64,000 bases of DNA. Origin: Candidatus Acidiferrales bacterium. GTDB taxonomy: Bacteria; Acidobacteriota; Terriglobia; Acidiferrales; UBA7541. The stretch is from positions 6,559 through 70,558 of the forward strand of contig CAWGXB010000043.1 of the NCBI GenBank assembly GCA_963826335.1, given 5' to 3'. The notes under the pieces were generated by a model. It had not been told where the DNA came from, ran no database searches, and saw only the letters and a program-made list of their open reading frames with translations. Positions 14,994-38,234 of this stretch are shown one piece after another. The translations under genes were made by a program, and so were the position numbers. How positions within the stretch are numbered: the first letter of the stretch is position 1; every line of letters starts with the position of its first letter.

Positions 14994-15698
14994 GTGCAGC
15001 CTCTGATTCAGTTGAAAAATCTGGAGAAAGCCTTCGAAGCTGGGGGGCAGAAATTCTTCGTCTTGCGGCGCATCAACCTGGACATCCAACCCGGGGAATT
15101 CGTCACCATCATGGGACCGTCCGGGGCAGGGAAGTCCACTTTGCTCAGCATTATCGGAATGCTCGATGGCGCTTGGACGGGCGAGTACTTCTTCGGCGAG
15201 CAACCGGTTCACAAACTCAGCGTGAAGCAGCGCAACGAGCTGCACAAATACAACATCGGTTTCGTGTTTCAGAGCTACCATCTCATCGACACGCTTACCG
15301 TGTACGAAAATCTTGAAGTGCCTCTCTCTTACAAAAATATTCCCCACAAAGAACGCTCCAGCCTGGTTTGCGACGCGCTCGACCGTTTCAACATTGTGGG
15401 CAAGAAAGATCTGTTCCCTAATCAGCTCTCTGGCGGACAGCAACAACTGGTCGGCGTGGCGCGCGCCGTAATCCAGAATCCCAAACTGATTCTTGCTGAC
15501 GAGCCAACCGGCAATCTTCACTCTGCCCAGGGTGAAGAAATCATGGAGTTGTTCAAGCGGCTCAACGATGCGGGCACCACTATCATTCAGGTGACGCACT
15601 CGGAGAAAAACGCTTCGTACGGCAATCGCATCATCAACCTGCGCGATGGTTGGGTGGTTACTGAAACGCCCACCACGGTTGCGGGCTCGGCCCAGTAA
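14994..15698 (+). CDS. MacB/LolD-type ABC transporter ATP-binding protein 2 (divergent signature/D-loop)
   Basis: GTG 14994 follows AAGGAG. Walker [10 protein letters not shown], signature [15 protein letters not shown], Walker [13 protein letters not shown] and H-switch VTHS. Confidence 0.9.
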
Positions 15699-15754
15699 CG
15701 TTCCTTTGGTTCGGCCACGACCTAAAGCTCAATCTTCGCCAAGGAGACTTCACC

Positions 15755-18226: not shown

Positions 18227-18235
18227 GAAGGGGCC

Positions 18236-20677: not shown

Positions 20678-20794
20678 GTTTGGTATCCCAGCGCGCATTC
20701 CGTCGACGGCACATTGGTCAAGCGGCGAAGCTCACTGCAAACCTGGCCTGCTCCCGTGGAAAGCACGGTAAACTGTCCACCACATCCGATCTCT

Positions 20795-22171: not shown

Positions 22172-23508
22172 AACCGCTTACATACGAACGGCGAATTCAG
22201 CTTCTAGCAATCGCAACCGGACTTCCAGGCACATTGGTAGCCTTGGGCCTGCTGTGGTTCGGTCCGTACAGCTCGCAAACCGCGTGGACAGTGACCCTCT
22301 TGCTCTTCGGATTGTGGCTGGGCTTTGCCATTTCCCTGCAGCACCGCGTCATCTTCTCCCTACAAACGCTGGCCAATTTGCTTGCCGCTATGCGCGAAGA
22401 AGATTTCTCGTTGCGCGGGCGCGGCGCGCGCATGGACGATGCCATGGGCGAAGTGATGATCGAAGTCAACACCCTGAGCGAGACGTTGCGCGAGCAGCGG
22501 CTTGGCGCCCTGGAAGCCACCGCTCTGCTGCGAACCGCGATGGAAGAAATCGATGTAGCGGTGTTCACGTTCAACAACCAGAACGAATTGAAACTCGTCA
22601 ACCGCGCCGGCGAACGCCTGCTGTCGCGTCCCGCGGAGCGCACCCTTGGCCTTTCTGCTTCCGACCTGGGCCTGGCCGTATGCCTGGAAGGCGAGCCGGC
22701 GCGAACCATGGAATTGAGCTTCCCCGGTGGCGCAGGACGATGGGGTATGCGCCGCGGATCATTCCACCAAGGTGGCTCGCCTCACCACCTGGTTGTTTTG
22801 ACGGACCTGAGCCGCGCTCTTCGCGAAGAGGAGCGCCAGGCCTGGCAGCGTCTGATTCGCGTGCTCGGCCACGAACTGAACAACTCCTTGGCTCCGATCC
22901 AGTCCGTTGCGCAGAGCCTGGAAACTGGTCTGCAACGCGCCGAGAGTGCGCGCGACCAGAGCACGGAACAGGACGGCTCGATATTCGATGATCTGCGCCA
23001 GGGGCTGGCCATCATCCGCTCGCGCACCGAGGCCCTCGGACGATTCATGTCGGCATATACGCAGCTGGCCCGCTTGCCGCAGCCGTCGCTGGCCTCCGTT
23101 GAGTTCGGCGAGTTGGTGCGTCGCGTGGCTGCGTTGGAACGCCGAGTTGCTTTGGAACTTGGCGGCGGACCCGCTGCGACCATTCAGGCCGACCGCGATC
23201 AGCTGGAACAGCTGCTGATCAACTTGATCCGCAACGCGGCGGATGCTGCTTCAGAAACCAAAGGCAGAGTGCGCATTGAGTGGTATCGCACCACTTCGAA
23301 TCTGGAACTGCAAATCCTCGATGAGGGTCCCGGACTTTCGAACACTACCAACCTTTTCGTTCCGTTTTTTACCACCAAGCCCGGTGGCTCGGGAATCGGC
23401 CTCGTCCTCAGCAGGCAGATTGCCGAGGCGCATGGCGGTTCCTTGACGCTGGAAAACAGAACGGACCGCCGGGGTTGCAAGGCTCGACTTCTTCTTCCCA
23501 TCCCGTGA
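22168..23508 (+). CDS. Sensor histidine kinase (two N-terminal TM helices, HisKA + HATPase_c)
   Basis: ATGA overlap with the regulator stop. H-box LGHELNNSLAPI, N-box LINLIRNAADA, and G-boxes DEGPG and GGSGIGL. Confidence 0.88.
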   Translation: MKPLTYERRIQLLAIATGLPGTLVALGLLWFGPYSSQTAWTVTLLLFGLWLGFAISLQHRVIFSLQTLANLLAAMREEDFSLRGRGARMDDAMGEVMIEVNTLSETLREQRLGALEATALLRTAMEEIDVAVFTFNNQNELKLVNRAGERLLSRPAERTLGLSASDLGLAVCLEGEPARTMELSFPGGAGRWGMRRGSFHQGGSPHHLVVLTDLSRALREEERQAWQRLIRVLGHELNNSLAPIQSVAQSLETGLQRAESARDQSTEQDGSIFDDLRQGLAIIRSRTEALGRFMSAYTQLARLPQPSLASVEFGELVRRVAALERRVALELGGGPAATIQADRDQLEQLLINLIRNAADAASETKGRVRIEWYRTTSNLELQILDEGPGLSNTTNLFVPFFTTKPGGSGIGLVLSRQIAEAHGGSLTLENRTDRRGCKARLLLPIP

Positions 23509-25299: not shown

Positions 25300-26331
25300 A
25301 TGCATCGCAACACGTCGGATTTGATCACAGTGACAGGAGCGGGTGGATTCATTGGCGGGGCGATGGTATCGCATCTTCGCCGAGCGGGTCACAAGCGCAT
25401 TCGCGCGATCGACATCAAACCACTGGACGACTGGTACCAGCGGTTTGACGACGTCGAGAACCACTCCCTCGATCTGAACCTTCTACACAACTGTGAACTA
25501 GCCACCGATGGAGCTGCAGCCATCTACAATTTCGCGGCGAACATGGGTGGCATGGGCTTCATCGAGCACAACAAGGCCCTGTGTATGCTTTCCGTCCTGA
25601 TCAATACGCACATGCTGCAGGCCGCACAGAAATTCGGCGTGCAGCGATATTTTTATTCTTCTTCCGCGTGCGTCTACAATGCCGATAAACAGAAAACGTT
25701 TGAAGCCCCCTCGTTGAAAGAGGAAGATGCCTATCCCGCACTGGCCGAAGACGGTTATGGCTGGGAAAAACTTTTTTCCGAGCGCATGTGCCGCCATTTC
25801 CGCCAAGATTATGGGCTAACCACACGGGTGGCGCGGTTCCACAATGTTTATGGCCCCTGGGGCACCTGGTACGGCGGCCGCGAGAAAGCCCCCGCGGCGA
25901 TCTGCCGAAAAGTGATTGAAGCTAAACTGTCCGGTAAGCACGATATCGAGATCTGGGGAAGCGGCACGCAGACCCGCAGCTTCATGTACATCGACGATTG
26001 CATCAAGGGCGTAAACCTAATCATGGACTCGGAAATTGTGGAACCCATCAATCTGGGCTCAAGCGAAGCCGTGACCATCAATCAATTGGTGGACATGGCG
26101 GAGGAGATTGCTGGAATCAAGCTAAAGCGGACCTACGACCTCAGCGCGCCGAAGGGCGTGAATGGCCGTAACAGCGATAACACTTTGATCCAGAAATACC
26201 TGCATTGGGAGCCAAGCACGCCGCTACGCGTGGGGCTGGAGCAGACCTACAAGTGGATTTACGACCAGTATTTGGCACGCGAACGCGGAGATGCGGGAGT
26301 GGTTCGCGAATCCGCGGCCTCTTCCGGATAG
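25300..26331 (+). CDS. gme: GDP-mannose 3,5-epimerase (extended SDR)
   Basis: GAGGFIGG Rossmann motif. The sequence is near-collinear with the plant GME sequence as I remember it: AANMGGMGFI, FYSSSACVY, GWEKL, RFHNVYGPWGTWYGGREKAPAAICRK, TRSF.YIDDC, GVNGRNSDN. Confidence 0.8.
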   Translation: MHRNTSDLITVTGAGGFIGGAMVSHLRRAGHKRIRAIDIKPLDDWYQRFDDVENHSLDLNLLHNCELATDGAAAIYNFAANMGGMGFIEHNKALCMLSVLINTHMLQAAQKFGVQRYFYSSSACVYNADKQKTFEAPSLKEEDAYPALAEDGYGWEKLFSERMCRHFRQDYGLTTRVARFHNVYGPWGTWYGGREKAPAAICRKVIEAKLSGKHDIEIWGSGTQTRSFMYIDDCIKGVNLIMDSEIVEPINLGSSEAVTINQLVDMAEEIAGIKLKRTYDLSAPKGVNGRNSDNTLIQKYLHWEPSTPLRVGLEQTYKWIYDQYLARERGDAGVVRESAASSG

Positions 26332-26336
26332 TTTGA

Positions 26337-27758
26337 TCAGTCGGTGTGCAGTTCGTCTAGCAGCTTGCCTTCACAATCAATCAGGCGGATGTTCATGGCT
26401 AGCAAGCCGTTGGCGTGCGTCGAGCAGCTCAAGCACGGATCGTAAGCCCGCACCACCGCCGATACACGGTTAATCATCCCTTCACTGAGCTTGTTCCCGT
26501 CGATGAAATGCTCGCTGACTTGCTGCACGCTTTTGCCAATCGCTAGATTGTTGTGACCCGTGGCCACAATCAGGTTGGCCCAGGTGATGGCGCCATTTTC
26601 ATCCACTTTGTAGTGATGAATCAGCGTGCCTCGCGGCGCTTCGATGATTCCCACGCCTTCGTTCACGTTTACGCCCGCAACCGCGCGCACATGTGTCTCG
26701 AGAATCCGCGGGTCGTCCAGCAGCGCTTCCATACGTTCCAGCGCGTAAATCACTTCAATCAGCCGCGCGTAATGATACAGGAACGCGCTGTGTGCCACGG
26801 TTCCGAACCGTTGGCGAAATTCCTTTAGCTCCTGATCCGCCTTGGGCGTCCCACAGCTATCGGCAGTGTTCAAGCGTCCCAGCGGGCCTACGCGGTAGAC
26901 ACCAGCAGGGAATCCCTGCGGCTTAAAATAGGGGGCTTTCAGATACGAGTCGCGCAGGCTGGCCTCGCCAATCCATTCGCGGTAGGCGTCGGGCTCAATC
27001 TGGTCCTCAGCAATTTCGCCACTTGCCTTGCGGAAGCGCAGATTGCCGTCGTACAGTTGCAGCCTGCCTTTCGCGTCCACCAGGCCTTCATACATGCTGG
27101 GGAAGGAGCCAAAGAACTCGATCTCTTCCTTGTGATTGTCCAACGCACCCTTGAAGAACTGAATGGTGTGCTCGGCGATCGCTTTGGCCTTGGGAAGCTC
27201 AGCAAGAATATGTTCTCGCGTGTGTGCCGCCAACGGTGTGGCCACGCCTCCGGGCACGATCCATGCCGGATGCACTCGTTCTTGCGCCAAGCCTTCCACC
27301 ACTTGCAGTCCGAATTTACGCAGGTCGATTCCGTCGCGCGCCAATTCCGGATGGCTTGCAATTACGCCAAGAACGTTTCGGGCGGCAGGGTCGGAATCCA
27401 TGCCAAGAAGGAAATCCGGGGCTGACAGGTAGAAGAAACTCAGGGCATGCGATTGCACGATCTGCGCAAAATGCACCAATTCCCGAAGCTTCTTGGCGGC
27501 CGGCGGCACGCGCACGGCCATGATGGCGTCGCAGGCCTTCGATGATGCCAGCAAGTGGCTGATTGGGCAGATTCCGCAGATGCGCGCCGTAATCCCGGGC
27601 ATCTCGTAGAACGGGCGGCCTTCGGTGAACTTCTCGAATCCGCGCACCTGGGTGACATGAAATTCCGTACCCGCCACGTGTCCCTGGTCGTCCAGTTGAA
27701 TGGTGATCTTCGCGTGGCCTTCGATGCGTGTCACGGGCTCGATTGTGATGCGCTTCAT
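26337..27758 (-). CDS. hoxH: Bidirectional [NiFe] hydrogenase large subunit HoxH
   Basis: N-terminal RIEGH and RICGICPISH; C-terminal DPCLSCSTH followed by a 25-aa extension. AAGGAG lies upstream of the ATG. Confidence 0.93.
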   Translation of the reverse strand: MKRITIEPVTRIEGHAKITIQLDDQGHVAGTEFHVTQVRGFEKFTEGRPFYEMPGITARICGICPISHLLASSKACDAIMAVRVPPAAKKLRELVHFAQIVQSHALSFFYLSAPDFLLGMDSDPAARNVLGVIASHPELARDGIDLRKFGLQVVEGLAQERVHPAWIVPGGVATPLAAHTREHILAELPKAKAIAEHTIQFFKGALDNHKEEIEFFGSFPSMYEGLVDAKGRLQLYDGNLRFRKASGEIAEDQIEPDAYREWIGEASLRDSYLKAPYFKPQGFPAGVYRVGPLGRLNTADSCGTPKADQELKEFRQRFGTVAHSAFLYHYARLIEVIYALERMEALLDDPRILETHVRAVAGVNVNEGVGIIEAPRGTLIHHYKVDENGAITWANLIVATGHNNLAIGKSVQQVSEHFIDGNKLSEGMINRVSAVVRAYDPCLSCSTHANGLLAMNIRLIDCEGKLLDELHTD

Positions 27759-27768
27759 TGCAAGCTCC

Positions 27769-28299
27769 TTATCCGAATTTCACGTTCGGATTTGCCGCTG
27801 GCTTTCGTCCTTCTAACAGATCGTTGATGGCGTTCAGAATGGCCTTCGAGGGCGGCGGGCAGCCGGGAAGGAAATAATCCACTTTGACGTATTCGCGTAA
27901 CGGGCGAGCGTGCTTCAGCAGTGTGGGAACTCCGTCCTTGGGGATTACCTTGTTTTCGTCCGACCCTTCCACGTACACCTGCTGCAGCAGCTTGTTGGTG
28001 GGCAGAAAGTTCCTCATTGCCGGAACGTTTCCTGTGACCGCGCAATCTCCCAGCGAAATCAGCACCTGGGTACGCTGCCGAATCTTCTGCAGCTTGTCCA
28101 GGTCGTCCTGTGAACTGACCGCGCCCTCCACCAGCGTAACGTCCACTCCTTCGGGGAATTCCTGCGCGTCCACCAAGGGTCCATAGACCAGATCGATTTT
28201 TCGCCCCAGGGGAATGACGGCCGCATCCATATCCAGCAGCGACATGTGGCAGCCCGAACATCCATCGAGCCATACGGTTGCCACTTTCACTTTTTTCAT
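27769..28299 (-). CDS. hoxY: Bidirectional [NiFe] hydrogenase small subunit HoxY
   Basis: MKKVKVATVWLDGCSGCHMSLLD, 176 aa. ATG 28299 overlaps the hoxU TGA (ATGA). The track ORF extends upstream spuriously. Confidence 0.9.
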   Translation of the reverse strand: MKKVKVATVWLDGCSGCHMSLLDMDAAVIPLGRKIDLVYGPLVDAQEFPEGVDVTLVEGAVSSQDDLDKLQKIRQRTQVLISLGDCAVTGNVPAMRNFLPTNKLLQQVYVEGSDENKVIPKDGVPTLLKHARPLREYVKVDYFLPGCPPPSKAILNAINDLLEGRKPAANPNVKFG

Positions 28300-29009
28300 A
28301 CCGTCACCCCTCTCTTTTCCACCAGAGAAGTAACCACGCCGGGATTCTTCACCATTTGCTCCACCGCCCAGCCCTTTTCCGCCAAAGCTCCGGTCGGGCA
28401 GACCTGCACGCACTTGCCGCAATTGGTGCAGTTCGTTGACTTGCCCCACGGCTCATTCATGTCGCTGACGATGTGAGCGTGAATTCCGCGCGAGACCAGT
28501 TCCCACACATGCGCGCCTTCCAACTCCGCGCAGACACGGACGCAGCGGGTACAGAGAATGCATCGGTTGTGGTCCAGCACGTACCGGGGGTGCGATTGAT
28601 CCACGCGCAAGTGCGGATAGTTGTAGGCGAAACCGACGGTGTCGATGCCCATCGCCGTGGCCATGGATTGCAGTTCGCAATGCCCGTTCGAGACGCACAC
28701 CGCGCAGACGTGATTGCGTTCGATCAGCAGCAGTTCCACGGACATACGCCGGTACCGCGTCAGCTTCGGCGAATTGGTTGTAACCGACATGCCGTCCTGG
28801 ATCGGCGTGGTGCAGGCGGGGAACAAGCGGTCGCTGCCTGAAACTTCTACCAGGCAGATCCGGCAAGCCCCCACCGGGCTGAGCCCGGCAAACGCGCACA
28901 GAGTCGGTATGGATTTGCCGTTGGCGATGGCCGCGTCCAGAATGGTCTGGCCTTCCAGAGCGCTGATCAATTGCCCGTCAATCCGTATAGATAACTTTTT
29001 CGCTGTCAA
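28296..29009 (-). CDS. hoxU: Hydrogenase diaphorase subunit HoxU (NuoG N-terminal-like, 2Fe-2S + 4Fe-4S)
   Basis: IRIDGQ..GQTILDAA..GKSIPTLC...CRICLVEV, plus multiple CxxCxxC ferredoxin motifs. Confidence 0.9.
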   Translation of the reverse strand: MTAKKLSIRIDGQLISALEGQTILDAAIANGKSIPTLCAFAGLSPVGACRICLVEVSGSDRLFPACTTPIQDGMSVTTNSPKLTRYRRMSVELLLIERNHVCAVCVSNGHCELQSMATAMGIDTVGFAYNYPHLRVDQSHPRYVLDHNRCILCTRCVRVCAELEGAHVWELVSRGIHAHIVSDMNEPWGKSTNCTNCGKCVQVCPTGALAEKGWAVEQMVKNPGVVTSLVEKRGVTV

Positions 29010-29022
29010 GGCTCGCTCCTTC

Positions 29023-32000
29023 TCAGCTCACGTTCACTGTCTTGACGTCGCATCGCAAGCAGCGGCACGCTTCGTCATGCGCATCGTCCTGGGTCAATCC
29101 GGTCACGACCTCTTCGTAGGAGTGCGCGCGCGGGCCGGCGGCAATCACCAGTCCGGTGTGGCGGCGGTGAGGGCTCGGTTCCGACGGTGGTTGGTTACTG
29201 TAGGTAACTTCCGGAAACAAACTGCTCCAGCGGTCCGTCTCCATGAGTTGCCGGTCGATGCTACGGGCCGCCTGCTTACCGGAAGCCATCGCGTTGGACA
29301 CATTTGACGCCCCGGTCACCAGGTCTCCGCCGGCATAGAAACGCGCGCGGCTGGTTTCCAGCGAGTAGCGGTTCACGTCGATCGTGCCGCTCTCTTTCAT
29401 GGTCAGCCCCGACGCGCGCACGAAATCCATGTCGACGCCTTCGCCGATCGCGAAGACTACTGAGGTACACTCGATCCGCTGGATCTCATCGGTCAGCACC
29501 GGTTTTCTGCGGCCTGATGTGTCGTACTCGCCCAGCCGCGTCTTCACAATTTCAATGCCTTTGACGTGGCCCTTGTTGTCGCCAATCACACGATGCGGAG
29601 CGGCCAGGAACACAAACTTCGCCCCTTCCTCCCGCGCCGCTTCGGTTTCTTCTTCAATCGCCGGCATATCCTTGCGCTCGCGCCGGTAATACACGGTTAC
29701 TTCCGATCCTTTGCGAAGCGCGGTGCGTGCGGAGTCGATGGCTGCGTTGCCGCCGCCGATGATCACCACTTTCCGGCCGATGGGTACGTCTTCGCCGCTA
29801 GCCACGGCTTCCAGGAAGTTCAACGCGGGATATACGCCTGCCAACTCCGTTCCGGGTTGGTAGACCCACGATTCCTTCCAGGTTCCGATGGCCAGGAAGA
29901 TCATGTCGAAACGGTCGTCCAACTCGTTCAATGGAAGGTCGAAGCCCACGCGCGTATTCAGGACGAATTTCACGCCCAGACGTTCAATCAGCTCAATCTC
30001 GCGCCGCAAACTGCCCTTTGGTAGCCGGTATTCTGGAAGCGCAAATCGCAGCATGCCTCCCGCTTCTGATTTGCCGTCGTAGACGGTGACGTCGTGGCCC
30101 AGCATGGCCAGGTAAAACGCCGCCGTGAGTCCGGCAGGTCCAGCGCCGACAATTGCCACTTTTCTGCCGGTTGGCTCGAGCTTTCGCGCCAGGATTGTCT
30201 GCACCATCTCTTCGTAATTCTCGGATTCAAAAATGGTATCGGCAATGTAGCGGTGTACTTCGCGCATGTTCACGGCCTGGTCAAGCGCCTGGCGGCGGCA
30301 ACGGCTGTCGCACGGGTGCTGGCACACGCGTCCGGTGGAAGAGGGCAGGGGATTGTCCATAATTACAGACAGGAACGCCTCCTGCAGCCGACCTTCTTTG
30401 TAAAGCTGCAGGTATCGCGGAATGTTCATGTGCAGCGGACAACTGTTTTCGCAAGGAGACAGCGCCAATTCCTCGCACACTCCTGCCGGGCAGCGGTGCG
30501 CAAGGATATGGTCCTCAAATTCATTCCGGAAATGCCGTAACGTGGTCAGCACAGGGTTCGGAGCGGTCTGCCCCAGTCCGCACAACGAGCACTCGCGGAT
30601 ATAACGGCCCAATTCGTCCAGCAATTCCAGGTGTTGCGTGCGGCCGGCTCCTTCGGTCACGCGGTTCAGGATTCGCAGGCACTTGTTCAGTCCCACGCGG
30701 CACGGAATGCACTTGCCGCACGATTCGGAATGAGTGAATTCGATGAAGTACCTGGCAACATCCACCATGCAGTTGTCTTCATCCATCACCACCATGCCGC
30801 CCGAACCCATGATGGAGCCAAGCTGCGCCAAGTTTTCATAGTCTACGGGCGTGTCGAACATCTCGTGCGGGATGCATCCTCCCGAAGGACCGCCGGTTTG
30901 CACTGCTTTCACGGTGCGCCCGCCTGCCGCGCCTTCGCCGATGTCGTATACAAACGTCTTCAAGGATGTGCCGAGCGGCATTTCCACCAAGCCGGTGCTC
31001 TTCACTTTTCCCACCAGCGAAAATACCTTGGTGCCGGCGCTCTTCGGGCTACCCGTTTCCGTGAACCAGGCAGGACCGCGCATCACGATGGGCGCGATGT
31101 TGTACCAGGTCTCCACGTTGTTGATGTTCGTCGGTTTGCCCCACAGACCCTTTTGCGCGGGGAACGGAGGCCTCGGCCGCGGTCGTCCCGCTTCGCCTTC
31201 CAGAGAGGCAATCAGCGCCGTCTCTTCCCCGCAGACAAACGCGCCCGCGCCTTCCACCAACGCGATGTCGAACTTGAAACCGCGCCCCAGGATGTTTTCG
31301 CCCAGCATGCCGTATTCTCTGGCTTGTTCGATGGCGCGATTCAGCCGGTGGACCGCCAAGGGGTACTCCGCGCGCACGTAAATGATTCCCTCCGTCGCGC
31401 CCATCACGTAGCCGCCGATAATCATTCCTTCCAAAAGCGAGTGCGGATCGCTCTCGATTTCGTTGCGATTCATGTACGCGCCGGGATCACCTTCGTCGGC
31501 GTTGCAGATGATGTACTTTGGTTCTGTTTTGGCCTTGGCCAGAAATTCCCACTTGTTGCCGGTAAGATAGCCGGCGCCGCCGCGTCCGCGCAGCTTCGAC
31601 GCTTTGATTTGCTCGATTACGTTTTCCGGACGCCCATCGATCAGCACCTTGTAGAGTGCCTGGTATCCGCCCACGGCGATGTATTCTTCAATGTCGTCGG
31701 GATTGATGATCCCGCAATTCCGCAGCACGATCTTCTTCTGCCCTTTGAAAAAGGGTTTGTCGTCCCACATAGGGACTTGCGGATAGCCCTGCCCGTATTT
31801 CAGCCGGCCGGTGATGTGGTCCCACTCTTCGATCTTGCAGAAAATCAATTCCGGATTGATTCTGCCGCTGTGCATGTCGTGAAGAATGCGGCTCGCGTCG
31901 TTCGCTTGCACTCGCTTCAGCATCAGTAGCGGACTTCCCGGCACCCGAACGTTCACCAACGGTTCCTGGTAGCACGCTCCAAAGCAACCCACTTGCGCCA

Positions 32001-32181
32001 GCACCACGTTCATGCCACTGCGTTCCACCGCTTCGGCAAAGGCCTGGTACAGTCCTTCGGCGCCGTTGCCCCGCCCGCACGTCCCCATGCCAATCGCCAC
32101 GCGCGGGACGGAAGGCGTTAGCTTAGCCAGCCCCGCCTCGCGCACTGCATTGAACGCCCCTATATCTAGGATTCGAGGCAT
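29023..32181 (-). CDS. hoxF: HoxF (NuoF-like FMN/NADH module) fused to a GltD/NfnB-like FAD/NAD(P)H oxidoreductase module, 1052 aa
   Basis: aa 1-~565 carry a thioredoxin-like 2Fe-2S domain (GMGTCGRGNGA..VGCFGACYQEP), GRGGAGYLTGNKW, CNADEGDPGAYMNR and ESCGKCIPCRVG. aa ~566-985 carry GltD-type Cys clusters (C..C...CENSCP; GRVCQHPCDSRC), an FAD motif KVAIVGAGPAGLTAA and an NAD(P)H motif KVVIIGGGNAAIDSA. The C-terminal tail has CRCLRC. It is one uninterrupted frame. ATG 32181 lies 2 nt after the hoxE stop. Confidence 0.88.
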   Translation of the reverse strand: MPRILDIGAFNAVREAGLAKLTPSVPRVAIGMGTCGRGNGAEGLYQAFAEAVERSGMNVVLAQVGCFGACYQEPLVNVRVPGSPLLMLKRVQANDASRILHDMHSGRINPELIFCKIEEWDHITGRLKYGQGYPQVPMWDDKPFFKGQKKIVLRNCGIINPDDIEEYIAVGGYQALYKVLIDGRPENVIEQIKASKLRGRGGAGYLTGNKWEFLAKAKTEPKYIICNADEGDPGAYMNRNEIESDPHSLLEGMIIGGYVMGATEGIIYVRAEYPLAVHRLNRAIEQAREYGMLGENILGRGFKFDIALVEGAGAFVCGEETALIASLEGEAGRPRPRPPFPAQKGLWGKPTNINNVETWYNIAPIVMRGPAWFTETGSPKSAGTKVFSLVGKVKSTGLVEMPLGTSLKTFVYDIGEGAAGGRTVKAVQTGGPSGGCIPHEMFDTPVDYENLAQLGSIMGSGGMVVMDEDNCMVDVARYFIEFTHSESCGKCIPCRVGLNKCLRILNRVTEGAGRTQHLELLDELGRYIRECSLCGLGQTAPNPVLTTLRHFRNEFEDHILAHRCPAGVCEELALSPCENSCPLHMNIPRYLQLYKEGRLQEAFLSVIMDNPLPSSTGRVCQHPCDSRCRRQALDQAVNMREVHRYIADTIFESENYEEMVQTILARKLEPTGRKVAIVGAGPAGLTAAFYLAMLGHDVTVYDGKSEAGGMLRFALPEYRLPKGSLRREIELIERLGVKFVLNTRVGFDLPLNELDDRFDMIFLAIGTWKESWVYQPGTELAGVYPALNFLEAVASGEDVPIGRKVVIIGGGNAAIDSARTALRKGSEVTVYYRRERKDMPAIEEETEAAREEGAKFVFLAAPHRVIGDNKGHVKGIEIVKTRLGEYDTSGRRKPVLTDEIQRIECTSVVFAIGEGVDMDFVRASGLTMKESGTIDVNRYSLETSRARFYAGGDLVTGASNVSNAMASGKQAARSIDRQLMETDRWSSLFPEVTYSNQPPSEPSPHRRHTGLVIAAGPRAHSYEEVVTGLTQDDAHDEACRCLRCDVKTVNVS

Positions 32182-32183
32182 AG

Positions 32184-32729
32184 TTATTCTCCCGACCGAA
32201 TTGTCTGGATTTCGCGTTGCAGAGTGCGTTCCGAAACGTGCCCGCAGATGCGATGGTTCACTTCCACAACCGGGGCCAGCGCGCATTGCCCGAAACAAGC
32301 CACCGTGCGCACCGTAAACTTGTTGTCGGCGGTGGTCAGCACCATCTTGTCGGCGGTGTTGCCATCATTGGCCCCGCTATCCTCATCCATCGACAGTCCC
32401 AGGTCCAATTGGACACTCTGCAGCAGGCCCCGCGATCCACGCGTGTGGCAGGCCGTCCCTCGGCAAATGCAAATCGTGTTTTCGCCCTGCGGCTGCAGAT
32501 TGAACAGCGCATAAAACGTCACAACACCGTAGATACGCGAGGGATTCGTCGCCGTTTTGGTGGCAATGTAGCGCAGCGTTTCCATCGGCAGATAATTCTG
32601 CGGATGGCGCTGCTGGACGGCTTCCAGCACGCTCAGCAGGGCGCCGGGCCTGCCGCGGTGGCTGTTAACTTCCTTGTCAATGAAAACGCGTTCTTCGGAT
32701 GCGAGTGTGCCTGCCGGGAGAGTGTCCAT
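32184..32729 (-). CDS. hoxE: Hydrogenase diaphorase subunit HoxE (NuoE-like 2Fe-2S)
   Basis: ATG 32729 follows AGGAG. Sequence: PGALLSVLEAVQ...YGVVTFYALF...ICICRGTACH...CFGQCALAP. Confidence 0.88.
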   Translation of the reverse strand: MDTLPAGTLASEERVFIDKEVNSHRGRPGALLSVLEAVQQRHPQNYLPMETLRYIATKTATNPSRIYGVVTFYALFNLQPQGENTICICRGTACHTRGSRGLLQSVQLDLGLSMDEDSGANDGNTADKMVLTTADNKFTVRTVACFGQCALAPVVEVNHRICGHVSERTLQREIQTIRSGE

Positions 32730-32816
32730 GGGAACTCCTAGTTGGAGAACGCACAACTCCAGATACAAGGTAGACGACCGGAGGTGAAAGACACCACCAC
32801 TCGAGACACAGAGAGC

Positions 32817-32832
32817 TGTGACGCAAATCACA
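32817..32832. promoter_or_regulatory. Perfect CRP/FNR-family palindrome TGTGA-CGCAAA-TCACA
   Basis: Read directly: TGTGA 32817-32821 and TCACA 32828-32832. The centre is about 95 nt upstream of the hoxE ATG, in the hoxE / 33120(+) divergent region. Confidence 0.55.
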
Positions 32833-32904
32833 AGATGTTAACAATTAGAGAAAAAGGATTTGCGAGGGAAGGAAGGGAAAACCGTGCGCTGCGTCACATA
32901 CCCG

Positions 32905-32920
32905 CGTGACGTGCATCACT
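32905..32920. promoter_or_regulatory. Second CRP-like half-conserved site cGTGA-CGTGCA-TCACt
   Basis: GTGA 32906-32909 and TCAC 32916-32919, 88 bp centre-to-centre from the perfect site. It overlaps the inverted repeat CGTCAC(32892-32897)/GTGACG(32906-32911). Confidence 0.35.
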
Positions 32921-33119
32921 ACACTGCTACGTAATTGATTTGCACTATTGTTCCACCCTGTCTTTTGGGTTTTATTGGTTGTAACAAGCGAGAAGTTACA
33001 GAAAACACGCCACACCATTTGGGGTGAACACCAAAAGTCGAGGGTGGCGTCTTTGTGCTCTTTCCAGCAGACGCTGCAAAGAAGATCGGCCAACTTCAGG
33101 CCGAACCGGGTCGACAACT

Positions 33120-34607
33120 GTGCAAGCGGGCCAACAAAATGTCCTTGTTCACGTTCGAGTTACCGCGGCAATTCTCCTGACCATCTGCGCGGTTGCGTTT
33201 GCTTCCGACACCAAGCCATCTTCCACCGCCGGGTCGAGTGTCGCGAAAGCCGCGCGGCCGGACATTGTCTTTGTGCAGGCTGCTGCCTACTCTGACCGCG
33301 GCGGCGCGCAAAGGTTCCCCGAGGGCAGTCGTATCGTCCGTCTGCACTCGCAGACGAATCACGCCGTTCCCGTGGATCTCACGCCGGAGTTTTTCGCGGC
33401 GGCCGACCCGCAAGTAGACTTCAACGCCGCCAGGATCCTTTTTTCCGGACAAAAGGCGCGCGGGGACAAATGGCAAGTTTGGGAGATGGACGCTGACGGG
33501 TCGCACCAGCGACAGGTGACTCGGTGCGCCGAAGATTGCCTGCGCCCGGGGTATTTGCCTGGCGACGAACTTGTGTTCACCGTGCTTGAAGAAAAGGACG
33601 GCAGCCTGGCATCCCACCTGGCTGTAGCGAATAGTGAAGGATCCAACGTCCACCCGATTACGTTCTCGCCGGGAGACTGGTGGTTCGAAACAGTGCTTCG
33701 CGACGGACGGGTTCTCGCGTCCGCTTCGTGGCCTCTGTCTTCTTCCAACCCGCAGGGTTCAGCGCCGCGTTTGTTCTATACCCTGCGGCCTGACGGCGCG
33801 GCGATGGATGCCTTCCGCTGCGAGCACCAACCATCGATCGTACGCGAAGATGCGCAAGAATTAGAGGATGGCTCCATCATCTATATCAGCACGGCGGTTC
33901 ATCCTTCGGAGACCGGCGGGGAACTGACCGAAATTCAACGCGGCGCGCTTGCGGAGAACGAGATCGAGTCCTCGGGAGCCGGCTATCTTTCGCCGCGACC
34001 CTACTTCCAGAACCAACTGATCGTTTCTCGCCAGCAAAGCCAAAGTTCCGGCGCACCCCAGAAATTCGCGTTGTATTCCTTCGATTTGCAGAAGCAGGTG
34101 CTTGGCCCGGTCATATATAGCGATGCGCATCTCTCCAGCATTCAGGCTGTCGCGCTTGCGGCGCATGCTGTGCCCAAGAAGTTCTGGAGCACGCTGAATC
34201 CCGATTCGAAGTTCGGCTACTTCATTTCGTTGGACAGCTATTCTTCGGCCGATGCGCCGAATGGCCGCGTCGCGTCTGCAATTGCCCAGGTTCGTGTGGT
34301 CACGCGCCGCTCTGGAGAGAATCAGGATTTTATTTTGGGTCAGGCCCCGGTCGAAAAAGATGGTTCCTTCTACGTGGAAGTGCCCGCGAACCAGCCGGTT
34401 CGGTTTGAGCTTCTCGACGCCGATGGCAAGTTGATTATCGCCGAAAAAAGCTGGATTTGGGCCCGTCCCGGCGAACAGCGAGGCTGCGCCGGTTGTCACG
34501 GCGATAAAGCGTTGGCCCCGGAAAATCGTTGGCCCATGACGCTGAAGAGATTCGATACACCAACGCATCTGGATAAAACTGAAAATGCTTCCGCAAAAAC
34601 AAACTAA
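33120..34607 (+). CDS. Secreted TolB/PD40-like beta-propeller protein with C-terminal CXXCH motif (HzsA-middle-domain-like)
   Basis: GTG 33120 gives a signal-like N-terminus (..VTAAILLTICAVAFA); the track start at 33024 is also possible. The C-terminus has SWIWARPGEQRGCAGCHGDK (CAGCH = nt 34485-34499). The family assignment is from memory of this conserved C-terminal motif. Confidence 0.6.
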   Translation: MQAGQQNVLVHVRVTAAILLTICAVAFASDTKPSSTAGSSVAKAARPDIVFVQAAAYSDRGGAQRFPEGSRIVRLHSQTNHAVPVDLTPEFFAAADPQVDFNAARILFSGQKARGDKWQVWEMDADGSHQRQVTRCAEDCLRPGYLPGDELVFTVLEEKDGSLASHLAVANSEGSNVHPITFSPGDWWFETVLRDGRVLASASWPLSSSNPQGSAPRLFYTLRPDGAAMDAFRCEHQPSIVREDAQELEDGSIIYISTAVHPSETGGELTEIQRGALAENEIESSGAGYLSPRPYFQNQLIVSRQQSQSSGAPQKFALYSFDLQKQVLGPVIYSDAHLSSIQAVALAAHAVPKKFWSTLNPDSKFGYFISLDSYSSADAPNGRVASAIAQVRVVTRRSGENQDFILGQAPVEKDGSFYVEVPANQPVRFELLDADGKLIIAEKSWIWARPGEQRGCAGCHGDKALAPENRWPMTLKRFDTPTHLDKTENASAKTN

Positions 34608-36330
34608 GGTGATCCGTCTTTCGCAGATCGTATCGAGCGCGGCTGTAATGCTCTTGCTCGCGTGGTTGGCGCCGGCTCAAGCGCAAAGGCCCGCGGATCA
34701 CGCAAGCACGGTGTCCGGCCAGGCCAGCCGCTATCCCTCCTACGAAAACGTTACCGAAAAATCCCACATTCAGTTCCAACATTCGTTTGGCGAACAGAAA
34801 CTCAGTTCTATTCTCGAAGCCACCGGCTCCGGGTGCGTGTGGTTCGACTACAACAACGACGGCTTGCTGGATCTCTACGTTCTAAGCGGAAGATACCTGG
34901 ACGGCGTGACCGATCACTCGAAAGTCGACGGCAAAGAGGCCACCAACCACCTTTATCGCAACAACGGCGATGGCACGTTCACCGATGTGACCGCACAGGC
35001 CGGCGTTCCGGGCAAAGGCTTTGCCATGGGTGTCACGGCCGGTGATTACGATAACGATGGCTACGAAGATCTGTACATCACCAACTGGGGCTCCGCGATT
35101 CTGTATCACAACAATGGCGATGGCACCTTCACCGACGTAACCGAAAAGGCCGGCGTGCAGAACAATCATTTTGGGGTTGGCGCCGCGTTCGTCGATTACG
35201 ATCGCGATGGCCGCCTGGACCTTTTTGTCGGCAACTATTTGAAGTTTGATCCGCACGCCAAGCGGCTGTACTACACCGCCGATGCCTTCGCGGGCCCGCT
35301 GGACTATGAAGGCGAGGGGAACCGCCTTTTCCACAATAACGGGGACGGAACCTTTACCGATGTGTCCGAACGCGCCGGCGTGGCGAATCCTGTCGGACGC
35401 GCCATGGGTGTGGCTATCGGCGATTTCGACAACGATGGCTGGCCCGACATTTACGTGGCGAACGACCAGATGGAGAGCTACCTGTACCATAACAACCACG
35501 ACGGAACGTTCACTAACGTCGCCTTGGAACAAAACGTGGCTTACGGCACCAACGGCGACACGCCTTCCGCCATGGGCCCGATCTTCACCGACTACGACAA
35601 TGACGGCGCGCTCGACATTTTTGTTTCCGACATGCGCTATCACCGGCTATTCCGCAATTCCGCCGCCGAGAAATTCTTCACTGACACCACCGCCGAGTCT
35701 GGCGTCGCTCACATGTCTGGTCAATACGTGGGGTGGGGCGACGCCTCGTTCGATTTTGATAACGATGGCTGGAAAGATTTGTTCGTCGTGAACGGCGGCC
35801 TGCACTGGCTTGTGCCGATGGAAGACCTGCTACTCCGCAACAATGGCAATGGCACATTTACCGATGTTTCCGAGGACGCTGGGCCGTACTTCAAAGAGAA
35901 AAAAGTTGGGCGCGGCGCGGCTTTCGCCGATTACGACAACGACGGCTGGATGGATGCCTTCATCGTTGTGCTTGGCGGAAAAGGAATTCTGCTGCACGCC
36001 AATCCGCCCGCGGCGAGCGCCCGAAATCACTGGCTAACACTCAAGCTGACCGGGACCAAAAGCAACCGTGATGGGTTTGGCGCGCGCCTCGAAGCCGTAG
36101 CGGGCGATCTGCGTCAAACGGTCGAAAATTGCCCGCAGTCTGGGTACCTCTCGCAGAACGATCCTCGCCCGCACTTTGGCCTGGGTTCGCACACTGACGT
36201 GGACGTGCTCACCATTCGTTGGCCCAGCGGCACGATGCAAACTTTGCAGCACGTGAAAGCCGATCAGATTCTGCACGTCACCGAGCCTCGCGAGGGCGAG
36301 TCAGCGGCAGGCAAAGGTGGCAAACCGTGA
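34585..36330 (+). CDS. CRTAC1/ASPIC-UnbV family FG-GAP (VCBS) repeat protein, secreted
   Basis: Signal peptide ..LLLAWLAPAQA. Seven D[YF]DNDG[WYL].D[LI][YF]V calcium-type repeats. C-terminal ASPIC/UnbV-like NHWLTLKLTGTKSNRDGFGARLE..VLTIRWPSG. It overlaps the upstream gene by 23 nt. Confidence 0.85.
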   Translation: MLPQKQTKVIRLSQIVSSAAVMLLLAWLAPAQAQRPADHASTVSGQASRYPSYENVTEKSHIQFQHSFGEQKLSSILEATGSGCVWFDYNNDGLLDLYVLSGRYLDGVTDHSKVDGKEATNHLYRNNGDGTFTDVTAQAGVPGKGFAMGVTAGDYDNDGYEDLYITNWGSAILYHNNGDGTFTDVTEKAGVQNNHFGVGAAFVDYDRDGRLDLFVGNYLKFDPHAKRLYYTADAFAGPLDYEGEGNRLFHNNGDGTFTDVSERAGVANPVGRAMGVAIGDFDNDGWPDIYVANDQMESYLYHNNHDGTFTNVALEQNVAYGTNGDTPSAMGPIFTDYDNDGALDIFVSDMRYHRLFRNSAAEKFFTDTTAESGVAHMSGQYVGWGDASFDFDNDGWKDLFVVNGGLHWLVPMEDLLLRNNGNGTFTDVSEDAGPYFKEKKVGRGAAFADYDNDGWMDAFIVVLGGKGILLHANPPAASARNHWLTLKLTGTKSNRDGFGARLEAVAGDLRQTVENCPQSGYLSQNDPRPHFGLGSHTDVDVLTIRWPSGTMQTLQHVKADQILHVTEPREGESAAGKGGKP

Positions 36331-36362
36331 GCTGCGGCCGCAGAAGACGGGCAATTTACCGG

Positions 36363-38234
36363 ATGCCCCAGCCGGTGGCCATCGTCGCCAGTCTTGTCAT
36401 AGCGTTGCTCATAAATCCTCGTGCCACTCGCGCACAGGACAAATCTTCATCGGAGCAGATGCAGGATCACTATCTAAGCCCGATCGAAGCCAAGATCTCC
36501 CCGGACGGCAGCAAGCTCTACGTGGTTTGCGAAGATGATGATTCGCTGCTCAGCGTCGATCTGCGTTCTCAGCGCGTCACCCGCAGAGCGAATGTAGGCC
36601 ACAGGCCAAAGGATGTCGCTGTCTCGCCGGATGGCCAAAAGCTGTACGTTACAAACGAATGGAGCGACACAGTCACGGAAATTGACGCTGCATCCTTCAA
36701 AGTGCTGCGCGCGCTTCCCACGGGGTGGGGGCCGATCGGTCTAACGACGGACCGCGCGGGGAAATTCTTGTACGTCGCTAATAGCATCAGCAACGACATT
36801 TCGGTCATCGAACTCCACACCGGAACCGAGCGCAAGCGCCTGGCGTCTTGGCGCTCTCCGCATCAGGTGACGCTGTCGCGCGATGGACGATTTGTCTACG
36901 TCGCCAATCTCCTCGGTCTTCTTGGGCGCCCGGATCAGTCGCCTGTCTCGGAACTCGTTGTCATCGACACACACAGCCAAAGCGTTGCCGAACGCATTGA
37001 AATTCCCGGCGTTTTGGAGCTTCGCCATATCGCGGAGTCCCCCGCCGCACAGGGCGGCTATTTGCTGGTTCCGTTCATGCGTCCGAAGAACCTGAATCCG
37101 CTCGTTCAGGTAGCCGACGGGTGGATGCTCACTCACGGGATGGCCGTGGTTCGTCCGGCAATTGCCGCCGGTTCCGCACCACACACGTCTCCCGAAACCA
37201 CGCAGGTCCTTCTCGACGATATCGATTACTACTACGCCGGCACCAACGGTGTCGCGTTCACTCCTGATGGACGCCGCGCACTGGTCACTTCTTCCGAAGC
37301 CGACGTTGTTTCCGTAATCGATACGGCAAAATTGCAGAAGCGGCTCAGCGAAGTTCCTGCAGCTCAGCTAGCCAATCGCCTCGACTCGTCCCGCGAAATC
37401 GTGCAGCGGCGGATTCCCACCGGACCGAATCCCACTGCGGTGGTGATGGCGCCAAACGGTTCATCGGCGTATGTCGTGAATCGTTTGGACGACAGCCTGA
37501 CCATCGTCGACATCCCGAACATGCGCGTTCGTGGAACGATTCGTCTCGGTGGCCCGAAAGAGTCTTCGCAGCTGCGTCGCGGCGAGAAACTGTTTCACTC
37601 CGCGCGATTCTGTTTTCAGGGACAATTTGCCTGCGTCACCTGCCATCCTGACAATCACATCGATGGCGTTGCCTGGAACTTGGAAACTCCGCAACTGGGC
37701 CGCGATCGTGTGGCCAATCGCACGCTGCGCGGCATCTCGGAGACCGCGCCTTTCAAATGGAACGGCCACAATCCAGACCTCGAAACGCAGTGCGGCCCGC
37801 GAATCGCCAAATTCCTTTTCCACTCGGAAGGATTCAACAAGGAAGAACTCGCTGACCTCGTGGCGTTCATCAAGTCCATTCCGCTGCCACCAAACCGCCA
37901 TCTGGCAGCCAATGGTGAACTATCCTCCTCCCAGGAGCGCGGCAAGGCCATCTTCTACAAGAAAAGCTGCGACACCTGCCATCCCGCCGCGACTCACTAC
38001 ACCGCCAAGTCCAGTTTTGACGTGGGCACGGCCACCAAGTACGACACATCGGGTCTTCTCGATGTTCCCCAGCTCGATCGCGTATATCAGCGGCCGCCCT
38101 ATCTGCACAGCGCAGAAGCGCTTTCGCTCGAGGAACTTTGGACCGTCTACAATCCCGCCGACAAACACGGCGTGACGTCCGACATGTCGAAAGAGGAGTT
38201 GAACGATCTGATCGAATTTCTGAAAACGCTCTAG
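36363..38234 (+). CDS. YVTN-type beta-propeller fused to di-haem cytochrome c peroxidase/MauG-like domain
   Basis: ATG 36363 gives the signal peptide MPQPVAIVASLVIALLINPRATRAQ. Repeats LYVTNEWSDTVTEID, LYVANSISNDISVIE, VYVANLL and AYVVNRLDDSLTIVD. Two CXXCH motifs: CVTCH (37632-37646) and CDTCH (37968-37982). Confidence 0.8.
   Translation: MPQPVAIVASLVIALLINPRATRAQDKSSSEQMQDHYLSPIEAKISPDGSKLYVVCEDDDSLLSVDLRSQRVTRRANVGHRPKDVAVSPDGQKLYVTNEWSDTVTEIDAASFKVLRALPTGWGPIGLTTDRAGKFLYVANSISNDISVIELHTGTERKRLASWRSPHQVTLSRDGRFVYVANLLGLLGRPDQSPVSELVVIDTHSQSVAERIEIPGVLELRHIAESPAAQGGYLLVPFMRPKNLNPLVQVADGWMLTHGMAVVRPAIAAGSAPHTSPETTQVLLDDIDYYYAGTNGVAFTPDGRRALVTSSEADVVSVIDTAKLQKRLSEVPAAQLANRLDSSREIVQRRIPTGPNPTAVVMAPNGSSAYVVNRLDDSLTIVDIPNMRVRGTIRLGGPKESSQLRRGEKLFHSARFCFQGQFACVTCHPDNHIDGVAWNLETPQLGRDRVANRTLRGISETAPFKWNGHNPDLETQCGPRIAKFLFHSEGFNKEELADLVAFIKSIPLPPNRHLAANGELSSSQERGKAIFYKKSCDTCHPAATHYTAKSSFDVGTATKYDTSGLLDVPQLDRVYQRPPYLHSAEALSLEELWTVYNPADKHGVTSDMSKEELNDLIEFLKTL

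Follow-up and report, generated by a model that had tools for sequence, protein, structure and literature searches.

The locus considered here raises the question of what a hydrogenase diaphorase would do with a second flavin and a second pyridine-nucleotide site. Within a 64,000-nucleotide stretch of contig CAWGXB010000043.1 from a Candidatus Acidiferrales bacterium (referred to at its full length as the window), the hoxF gene of a hoxEFUYH operon continues in frame into a GltD-type module, an arrangement pointed out in an earlier note on this DNA. We have examined the domain composition, conservation and genomic context of the fusion. Its product probably belongs to a working enzyme that joins H2, NAD(H) and NADP(H) three ways, in which the GltD module would serve as the NADP(H) port.

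An in-frame hoxF::gltD fusion in a hoxEFUYH operon

Coordinates are window positions and all operon genes lie on the minus strand. Translation of positions 29023-32181 yields a single unbroken open reading frame (ORF) of 1052 codons and a stop, without an internal stop, whose ATG lies 8 bases past GGGAGA and 3 bases past the hoxE stop codon. The claim that HoxF is fused in frame to a GltD-type module inside a hoxEFUYH operon is thus borne out by the one frame of 1052 amino acids (aa), by Pfam and NCBIfam domains and by 67 full-length copies in other genomes. A stop or frameshift near nt 30480-30500, for which the earlier note had allowed, is not present; the frame is unbroken there and broken copies elsewhere are never split at the junction. 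All five genes point the same way, and adjacent genes are close together or overlap:

32184..32729, minus strand: hoxE, 181 aa, NuoE/HydC-like, ATG at 32729; PF01257, 5.5e-36
29023..32181, minus strand: hoxF::gltD, 1052 aa, four Pfam domains
28296..29009, minus strand: hoxU, 237 aa; NCBIfam HoxU equivalog NF005745, 346.7 bits against a cut-off of 333
27769..28299, minus strand: hoxY, [NiFe] small subunit, 176 aa; PF01058, 1.1e-27
26337..27758, minus strand: hoxH, [NiFe] large subunit, 473 aa; PF00374

HoxE contains a thioredoxin-like [2Fe-2S] domain, the cluster of which is named C1/E1 in relatives, and its top NCBIfam match is HoxE NF005747 with a score under the family cut-off. HoxU carries one [2Fe-2S] and three [4Fe-4S] sites (Pfam: Fer2_4, NADH-G_4Fe-4S_3 and a Fer4 dicluster), is without a GltD insert and has A. 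mobile HydA residues 2-213 as its top solved match (222 bits). HoxH displays the metal motifs RICGICPISH and DPCLSCSTH and matches A. mobile HydL (7t2r_D, 519 bits), HoxH of the H. thermoluteolus NAD-reducing hydrogenase (5xf9_D, 424 bits) and Mvh (385 bits) among solved structures. We take the hydrogenase to be a cytoplasmic enzyme, and it is assigned as group-3d-like from operon content, the HoxH motifs and the closest solved chains. The hoxY ATG overlaps the hoxU stop as ATGA. An alternative ORF at 27755-28273 was rejected as hoxY; it gives no Pfam match and ~42% identity to relatives, while the overlapping frame 27769-28299 carries PF01058, and there is therefore no frameshift in hoxY.

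HoxH possesses a C-terminal extension after its DPCxxCxxH-type motif, a segment which is normally cleaved. Neither hyp maturation genes nor a hoxW endopeptidase gene adjoins the operon at window positions 25300-33024, so that maturation must depend on genes in another part of the genome. The operon and its flanks contain no gltB or other acceptor gene, no NfnS/GltB partner gene is found nearby, and there is no ferredoxin gene in the operon.

The fusion protein is divided into the following segments:

31822..32109, minus strand: N-terminal thioredoxin-like domain, residues ~25-120, B5/F2 site; aligns with the N-termini of 9n5u_B, 7t2r_B, 9bov_B and 8oh5_B
31093..31608, minus strand: flavin mononucleotide (FMN)/NAD(H) site, residues 192-363; Complex1_51K PF01512, 1.7e-42
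30508..30762, minus strand: four-helix [4Fe-4S] domain (cluster B1/N3/F1), residues 474-558; NADH_4Fe-4S PF10589, 9e-31
30454..30510, minus strand: Zn-linker (B2 site) and junction, residues 558-576; HydB/StnB alignments end here
30223..30453, minus strand: GltD-type Fe-S domain, residues 577-653, predicted ligands C577, C581, C620, C624, C628 and H643; PF14691
29278..30162, minus strand: flavin adenine dinucleotide (FAD) fold and NADP(H)-type fold, residues 674-968; Pyr_redox_2 PF07992, 1.5e-29
29026..29139, minus strand: C-terminal tail with a permuted EAxRCLxC motif, residues 1015-1052; CRCLRC at 1039-1044

A hidden Markov model domain scan, which had been suggested earlier as a check, therefore finds NuoF-type and GltD-type domains in one protein.

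The N-terminal half

Compared with solved chains, the N-terminal half is closest to 9n5u_B, the NfnB subunit of the Bfu-type NfnABC, and to 7t2r_B, the NiFe-HydB of A. mobile, at 640 bits each; 8oh5_B StnB (these three score ~600-640 bits) and FeFe-HydB chains also belong to the top group, as against 290-366 bits for the NuoF homologues of complex I and formate dehydrogenase (FDH). The closest unfused relatives (P0129, P0131 and P0136) are HydB proteins with 53-55% identity to this half; a 548-aa HoxF-type relative (P0199) shows 41% identity and stops straight after CPTGAC. By these comparisons residues 1 to ~570 are Bfu-type HydB, not NuoF of the complex I or FDH type. NCBIfam nuoF_fam covers residues 161-559, and PF10531, the soluble-ligand-binding domain, is not reported in the fusion at E<=0.001, in a region that aligns throughout with HydB chains.

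Conservation of ligands was assessed in a 68-sequence alignment spanning 45-100% identity. At the FMN site GRGGAG, GAGAFVCGEETAL and GGPSG are invariant and the AFM motif is AYM here, while the B1 ligands C488, C491, C494 and C534 are invariant, with ESCGKCIPC at 486-494. In the N-terminal domain C35, C66 and C70 are kept in 66-68 of the sequences and C115 in 61. Judged by sequence, this site could hold either a [2Fe-2S] cluster or Zn, both of which occur in solved relatives. Thus, of the NuoF-like module described in the earlier note, the FMN/NADH site and ESCGKCIPC stand and the thioredoxin-like domain aligns, while the [2Fe-2S] cluster assigned to that domain may instead be Zn.

The junction and the Zn-linker

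The Zn-linker residues H558, C564 and C569, together with C436 and C471, are invariant and probably form the Zn site of the fusion; the corresponding B2 site of A. mobile HydB was described as '4Cys+His' (PMC8880783) and is now regarded as a Zn site. Alignments with HydB and StnB stop at this linker, at chain residues ~527-541 of 584-602, and the alignment with GltD begins at PCxxxCP, with only 7 residues separating C569 from the first GltD ligand C577 (PC577-ENS-C581P). The previously proposed junction at about nt 30486 corresponds to residue ~566 within CPAGVC, where NuoF/HydB homology indeed gives way to GltD homology. What had been read as the first GltD-type Cys cluster is correct for C577 and C581; the other two, C564 and C569, are part of the Zn-linker of NuoF/HydB and are present in unfused relatives as well. 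Those relatives (P0129, P0131 and P0136) end with H-x4-KKCPAGVC followed by two copies of CxxCxxCxxxCP, a ferredoxin-like C-terminal domain with clusters B3/B4. No such pair follows the Zn-linker in the fusion, in which the 2x[4Fe-4S] ferredoxin-docking domain of BfuB is missing. As aligned, the GltD module stands where Bfu-type HydB has its ferredoxin-binding C-terminal domain.

The C-terminal half

The Fe-S domain of the GltD-type half is recognised by Pfam as Fer4_20, with a match at residues 561-653 (9e-21). The FAD motif KVAIVGAGPAGLTAA occupies residues 674-688, with GAGPAG at 679-684 (G679, G681 and G684) invariant, and the NADP(H)-type motif KVVIIGGGNAAIDSA occupies residues 804-818, with GGGNAA at 809-814 and Y832-R833-R834 invariant. 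GxGxxA has been proposed as an NADP(H) indicator (Kremp 2020), and the YRL arginine, equivalent to R239 of StnC, is invariant in the fusion family. The motifs quoted in the earlier note (ESCGKCIPC, the FAD GxGxxG, the NAD(P)H GxGxxA and CRCLRC) are all present, and their cofactor ligands, instead of being degenerate, are invariant or nearly so among the aligned sequences. At the level of sequence its second flavin and second nucleotide site are likewise recovered, both folds being found by Pfam with conserved motifs.

The order of these elements differs from that in GltD. The last ~35 residues of the fusion ('...EEVVTGLTQDDAHDEACRCLRCD') align with residues 16-44 at the N-terminus of T. maritima NfnB ('...EEALEEAQRCLQC'), with residues 16-48 of P. 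furiosus NfnL and with residues 540-567 of StnC. Since the tail matches both the NfnB/NfnL N-termini and the C-terminal motif of StnC, CRCLRC is the displaced RCLxC motif. Within the tail C1041 and C1044 are kept in 67 of the 68 sequences and are predicted to ligate the [4Fe-4S] cluster farther from FAD; C1039 is kept in 17, so that the CRCLRC tail reported previously is present but only two of its three Cys are conserved. By these alignments the circular permutation of the GltD module is precisely that of StnC. Among solved chains the half scores 358 bits with 9bov_A and 316 bits with 8oh5_C (residues 102-567 of both), 326 bits with Csac NfnA and 300 bits with P. furiosus NfnL, and it also aligns with NfnA(Bfu), NfnL and NfnB. 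NCBIfam GltD-type families (PRK12771, PRK12814, gltA and the glutamate synthase (GOGAT) small subunit) match residues 533-1050, all under their curated cut-offs; TIGR01316, TIGR01317/8, PRK12771 and PRK12814 are all missed, for example at 461.5 versus 516 and 339 versus 471.75. The earlier description of a GltD/NfnB-like extension consequently holds for the FAD-NAD(P)H module but not for its arrangement, which is of the permuted StnC/NfnA(Bfu) type rather than in NfnB/GltD order.

The non-Cys ligand position of the FAD-proximal cluster distinguishes the family further. It is His643 in 67 of the 68 fusions and Lys in one, whatever the genomic context, where StnC has the strictly conserved and functionally essential Lys170 and NfnB has Glu. 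His643 is regarded as a signature specific to the fusion family, as read from the alignment.

Other NuoF-GltD arrangements were also encountered. In P0229, P0239 and P0258 all that precedes the GltD module is the C-terminal [4Fe-4S] helix bundle of NuoF, as in the 654-aa P0258, or a linker with CxxxVC, and these proteins carry Lys, not His, at the position of StnC K170. Their architectures suggest several independent NuoF-GltD joinings, and some may be gene fragments.

Conservation and distribution

More than 120 protein-database clusters (90% identity level) have exactly 1052 aa and 83-100% identity to the window protein, the named ones being Acidobacteriia/Terriglobia. A scan of one genome per species gave at least 599 relatives, the best 80 of which were analysed as loci. 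These share 45-84% identity with the window protein, are almost all full-length and mostly belong to Acidobacteriota, the other phyla among them being Bacteroidota (Paludibacter), Spirochaetota (Treponema, Rectinema), Omnitrophota, Hydrogenedentota, Verrucomicrobiota, Chloroflexota/Dehalococcoidia and Proteobacteria. The 80 loci provided the 67 full-length copies, and clustering at 50% identity leaves about a dozen clusters that cover both halves. The predicted ligands, namely the B1 Cys, the linker set, the seven GltD Cys with H643, GxGxxG, GGGNAA and YRR, are invariant or nearly so. The cultured Paludibacter jiangxiensis (WP_068705997.1) has the same architecture in an [FeFe] version. A survey of fusions had been suggested earlier; the one made here places them mostly in Acidobacteriota and in several other phyla, with conserved ligands, and indicates a genuine fusion that is ancient and broadly distributed.

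The gene is split into at least two tblastn pieces in L042, L043, L053, L068, L073 and L076, several of which come from long-read MFD metagenome-assembled genomes (MAGs), at aa ~342, 682, 708, 825 and 836 and never at the domain junction. The split copies are probably assembly frameshifts, or possibly pseudogenes. One contig binned as 'Synechococcus sp. UW140' (L052) encodes a fusion 55% identical to the window protein which resembles the anaerobe-type copies, and may be mis-binned.

Genomic context of the cassette

The gene order E - F::GltD - U is kept in all 80 loci, and what follows it varies. In 39 loci hoxY-hoxH of a [NiFe] hydrogenase come after the cassette. In 16 others (L044-L048, L050, L051, L055, L057, L058, L060-L062, L066, L075 and L076), which come from Bacteroidota, Spirochaetota, Omnitrophota and Verrucomicrobiota, the place of HoxU is taken by the N-terminal part of a complete [FeFe] HydA; residues 222-583 in L045 comprise Fe_hyd_lg_C and a small-subunit domain, and the [FeFe] loci therefore encode HydC-HydB::GltD-HydA trimers. 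A hydrogenase is absent within 3-7 kb downstream in 13 loci (L008, L011, L014-L017, L023, L029, L037, L039, L053, L064 and L071), mostly from Terracidiphilus and other Acidobacteriaceae MAGs, as in L015 where the cassette is followed by accA, a CAAX protease gene and a methyltransferase gene. The remaining 12 loci were too short to classify. Occurrence in [NiFe], [FeFe] and hydrogenase-free contexts suggests that the cassette is a self-contained redox module able to plug into either hydrogenase class, and without a hydrogenase it may be a stand-alone NADH/NADPH oxidoreductase, possibly linked to ferredoxin.

Proposed function

In Bfu enzymes a third substrate feeds electrons through BfuA and B1 to FMN, where NAD(H) reacts, and the low-potential electron travels by way of C1, the mobile [2Fe-2S] cluster of the NuoE-like subunit, to B3/B4 of HydB and on to ferredoxin (PMC8880783, PMC11829005, PMC10482914). 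In the window complex H2 would be split at HoxH and its electrons would pass through HoxY, HoxU and B1 to FMN, where NAD+ would be reduced. A second route, probably by way of the HoxE [2Fe-2S] cluster C1 in the manner of the low-potential branch known from Bfu enzymes and cyanobacterial Hox, would start near the FMN and reach both GltD [4Fe-4S] clusters, then FAD and NADP+. A tether of 7 residues joins the GltD Fe-S pair to the Zn-linker, where B3/B4 hang in HydB, and the pair should therefore sit on the branch which in HydB leads to ferredoxin. With two routes, to NAD+ and to NADP+, the complex would connect H2, NAD(H) and NADP(H). All steps would be reversible, and an internal NADH:NADP+ transhydrogenase path would be what the hydrogenase-free cassette uses. 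A role of the FAD as an NfnL-type bifurcating flavin was judged unlikely, as there is no NfnS-like second exit and the FAD of the closest homologue, StnC, serves simply as a port for NADPH and does not bifurcate.

Such a three-way enzyme is probable in our judgement; strict coupling according to 2 H2 + NAD+ + NADP+ <-> NADH + NADPH + 2 H+ is the mode that we favour for it, though in itself this is less likely than not. When so coupled, NADP(H), with an in vivo potential near -380 mV, would play the part that ferredoxin has in the relatives. In vivo potentials of -280 mV for NAD, -380 mV for NADP and -414 mV for H2 at 1 bar (PMC9304861, Table 1) permit a Nernst estimate, at ~30 mV per decade of H2 pressure, of the H2 required. 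Reduction of NADP+ alone needs more than ~7 kPa, that of NAD+ alone more than ~3 Pa and the coupled reduction of both more than ~150 Pa; in reverse, added NADPH would let NADH be re-oxidised to H2 at a ~50-fold higher H2 pressure. By these thresholds coupling would pay physiologically in both directions, which is a rationale and not evidence. More tentative again is the generalisation that the cassette defines a ferredoxin-independent bifurcating/confurcating class, in which NADP(H) would be hard-wired as the low-potential partner of FMN in [NiFe], [FeFe] and hydrogenase-free versions; together with its proposed spread over abundant soil Acidobacteriota, anaerobic Bacteroidota and Spirochaetota, we consider this class somewhat unlikely.

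Several points weigh against the three-way enzyme or its coupling. All family members are known from sequence alone, NADP(H) specificity is read from motifs, and the placement of the GltD clusters is deduced from the 7-residue tether. An AlphaFold2 monomer of the fusion, built from a 36-sequence alignment, has a mean predicted local distance difference test (pLDDT) score of 73.9 and a predicted template modelling (pTM) score of 0.61, with pLDDT <50 at residues 564-583, 622-636 and 1043-1052; because the junction, the cluster loops and the tail score this low and pTM is 0.61, it offers no usable inter-module geometry. StnABC wires the same type of GltD module into a NuoG-like chain, which is a mid-potential entry and not a ferredoxin branch. 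In vivo NADP(H) lies only ~100 mV below NAD(H), a much smaller step than for ferredoxin, and strict coupling may therefore be unnecessary; the FAD, as a two-electron/one-electron converter, would need gating. Loci with only E-F::GltD-U show, in addition, that the module can function without a hydrogenase.

Alternative explanations

Two alternatives wire the same cofactors differently. The simplest reading of one chain bearing two complete nucleotide sites is an uncoupled dual-specificity diaphorase, in which both sites equilibrate freely with one Fe-S pool, H2 can reduce NAD+ or NADP+ or be formed from NADH or NADPH, and the complex also acts as a soluble, energy-independent transhydrogenase without bifurcation. 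The non-bifurcating FAD of the closest solved homologue and the small potential gap between NADPH and NADH (PMC9304861, Table 1) both speak for this. On the other hand, the NADPH/NADH disequilibrium of the cell would be lost through an ungated NADPH:NAD+ short circuit, traits of the coupled Bfu/Hox enzymes are kept (the C1 site of HoxE, the N-terminal site, the Zn-linker and the motifs GGPSG and A(F/Y)M) and the closest characterised relatives are all coupled enzymes; we regard such a diaphorase as unlikely. About as unlikely is a wiring like that of Stn, with the GltD module delivering electrons from NADPH to the mid-potential path that H2 also feeds (to B1/FMN, by way of HoxU or alongside it) and FMN bifurcating to NAD+ and to a soluble ferredoxin or flavodoxin that docks at the [2Fe-2S] clusters of HoxE/HoxF (E1/F2). 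The complex would then be a hydrogenase plus an NfnABC-type ferredoxin-dependent transhydrogenase, and the hydrogenase-free cassette a plain Stn analogue. The C-terminal half is indeed most similar to the GltD inserts of StnC/NfnA(Bfu), with the same permutation, and in Stn the FAD passes electrons to the FMN of StnB via [4Fe-4S] clusters; moreover, Synechocystis Hox uses ferredoxin via E1/F2 without a C-terminal ferredoxin domain, the ligands of both sites are kept here, and E-F::GltD-U-only loci exist. Treponema primitia is without Stn and Nfn (Kremp 2020) and Treponema MAGs have the [FeFe]-linked fusion. What argues for another wiring is that the module is joined to HoxF at the Zn-linker and not inserted in a NuoG-like subunit, that the strictly conserved Lys170 of StnC is His here and that the operon is without a ferredoxin gene; the AlphaFold2 monomer supplies no geometry by which the GltD clusters could be placed.

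Two further explanations concern whether NADP(H) is the partner and whether the gene is genuine. The GltD module might serve a glutamate synthase large subunit, polysulfide/sulfur (SudA-like) or O2, since GltD homologues are known in all these roles, and among the [FeFe] groups of HydDB, A2 is described as 'glutamate synthase-linked' (PMC5037454), a link to GltB having once been speculated for it. Given that no gltB or other acceptor gene occurs in the operon or flanks, that the NADPH-type fold and YRR are invariant and that the top matches are StnC and NfnL rather than GOGAT beta subunits, a different partner is very improbable. An artefact, whether a sequencing or assembly frameshift joining two genes or a pseudogene, could be suspected from the few long-read MAG loci with a broken gene. 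Against this stand the 67 independent full-length copies, which come from several phyla and share both the junction and the invariant ligands, breaks that never fall at the junction and the identical architecture in cultured Paludibacter jiangxiensis, and the probability left for it is negligible; the 1052-aa clusters and the full-length copies rule it out as far as sequence allows.

Other genes in the window

The window has ~58% G+C, tandem MacB/FtsX 'ADOP' permease paralogues and top matches in Acidobacteriaceae MAGs, and looks like an Acidobacteriota genome. Seven paralogous genes for ~820-aa MacB_PCD + FtsX permeases form a tandem array at 938-20677 on the plus strand, which is followed by two regulatory genes, and three genes at 33024-38234 on the plus strand are divergent from hoxE:

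938-3490, 4189-6651, 6658-9168, 9165-11624, 12504-14981, 15755-18226 and 18236-20677, plus strand: MacB_PCD + FtsX permeases
3427-4182, plus strand: truncated MacB_PCD ORF in the array
11793-12503, plus strand: ABC ATPase in the array
20714-22171: sigma-54 response regulator, after the array
22168-23508: histidine kinase, after the response regulator
33024-34607, plus strand: protein with a hydrazine-synthase-alpha middle domain, PF18582
34585-36330, plus strand: FG-GAP/ASPIC repeat protein
36219-38234, plus strand: beta-propeller protein with cytochrome c/di-haem peroxidase-like regions

Position in the literature and significance

We found no description of a HoxF/HydB-GltD fusion in the open full-text literature, a search that did not cover subscription-only papers. 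A Hydrogenedentota survey says of group-3d HoxF only that it 'lacks two FeS clusters', GltD and NuoF count as mutually exclusive under the HydDB rule (PMC5037454), and the Bfu survey retrieved BfuB sequences by the ferredoxin-type domain. Database labels of fusion proteins are generic, either 'NADH-quinone oxidoreductase subunit F' or 'FAD-dependent oxidoreductase'. Surveys which need the ferredoxin-type C-terminal domain, and the NuoF/GltD rule of HydDB, could therefore miss or misfile the fusion.

Hox and HydABC diaphorases are central to work on bifurcation, with studies of the Bfu family in 2022-2025 and of confurcating cyanobacterial Hox in a 2026 preprint, and a ferredoxin-docking domain swapped for an NADP(H) flavin module would offer a naturally occurring test of which partners can be attached to the low-potential branch. 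If H2 is linked to both pools, this would explain how NADH and NADPH are balanced against H2 in very abundant soil Acidobacteriota and in fermenters such as Paludibacter and Treponema, could fill a gap in organisms having neither Nfn nor Stn, and would provide a ferredoxin-free H2-to-NADPH catalyst for biotechnology.

Comparison with known systems

The same five genes as in the window operon constitute the group 3d HoxEFUYH of cyanobacteria such as Synechocystis sp. PCC 6803, and cyanobacterial HoxF, like the fusion, has an N-terminal metal domain, an FMN/NADH site and one [4Fe-4S] cluster and is without a ferredoxin-like C-terminal domain. Whereas canonical group 3d HoxF has ~530-600 aa, one FMN and one nucleotide site, the window protein has 1052 aa, and its ~480 extra residues add to the Synechocystis plan two predicted [4Fe-4S] clusters together with FAD and a site of NADPH type. 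Bifurcation and confurcation are reported for the Synechocystis enzyme with NAD(H) and soluble ferredoxin, without use of NADPH, through a low-potential branch consisting of the HoxE E1 and HoxF F2 clusters (bioRxiv 10.64898/2026.06.25.734504). The GltD module would give Hox the NADP(H) access which the cyanobacterial enzyme lacks. In identity, the N-terminal half is nearer to HydB of anaerobes than to the 548-aa HoxF-type protein.

Among solved structures A. mobile NiFe-HydABCSL (PDB 7T2R), a Bfu enzyme, matches best, with 519 bits for HoxH, 222 bits for HoxU and 640 bits for the N-terminal half, and its '4Cys+His' Zn/B2 linker is common to the fusion. By contrast, the C-terminal ferredoxin domain of Bfu HydB (B3/B4) is missing, with the GltD module in its place, and HoxU is short, at 237 aa versus 692 aa for A. 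mobile HydA. Of the features by which Bfu is defined (Schut et al. 2022), the BfuB FMN (IPR011538) and NuoF [4Fe-4S] (IPR019575) domains are found as PF01512 and PF10589, and those of BfuC and BfuA in HoxE (PF01257) and the HoxU Fe-S domains; the ferredoxin-type 2x[4Fe-4S] domain of BfuB (IPR017896) is absent.

StnABC/NfnABC (PDB 8OH5, 9BOV, 9N5U) are made of the same blocks as the fusion cassette, a NuoE-like subunit, a NuoF-like subunit and a permuted GltD with FAD and NADPH sites. They differ in that StnC has its GltD inserted in a NuoG-like subunit, whereas here it is at the C-terminus of the NuoF-like one, in StnB's C-terminal domain, missing from the fusion, and in Lys170 of StnC as against His643; the window system has, in addition, an attached [NiFe] hydrogenase. 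With NfnSL (NfnAB), SudA and GltD the fusion has in common two [4Fe-4S] clusters, FAD, the NADPH fold and the YRL arginine (TIGR01316, 339 bits), and it departs from NfnSL/GltD in having no NfnS/PyrK-like partner, a permuted motif order and a His instead of a Glu ligand. No PDB chain among the solved-structure matches covers both halves. Thus, the predicted architecture appears to be a hybrid of a group-3d Hox hydrogenase, a Bfu core and a Stn NADPH port which departs from each in at least one defining feature; the modules are well understood and the proposed chemistry is plausible, and it is the fused architecture itself that appears to be new.

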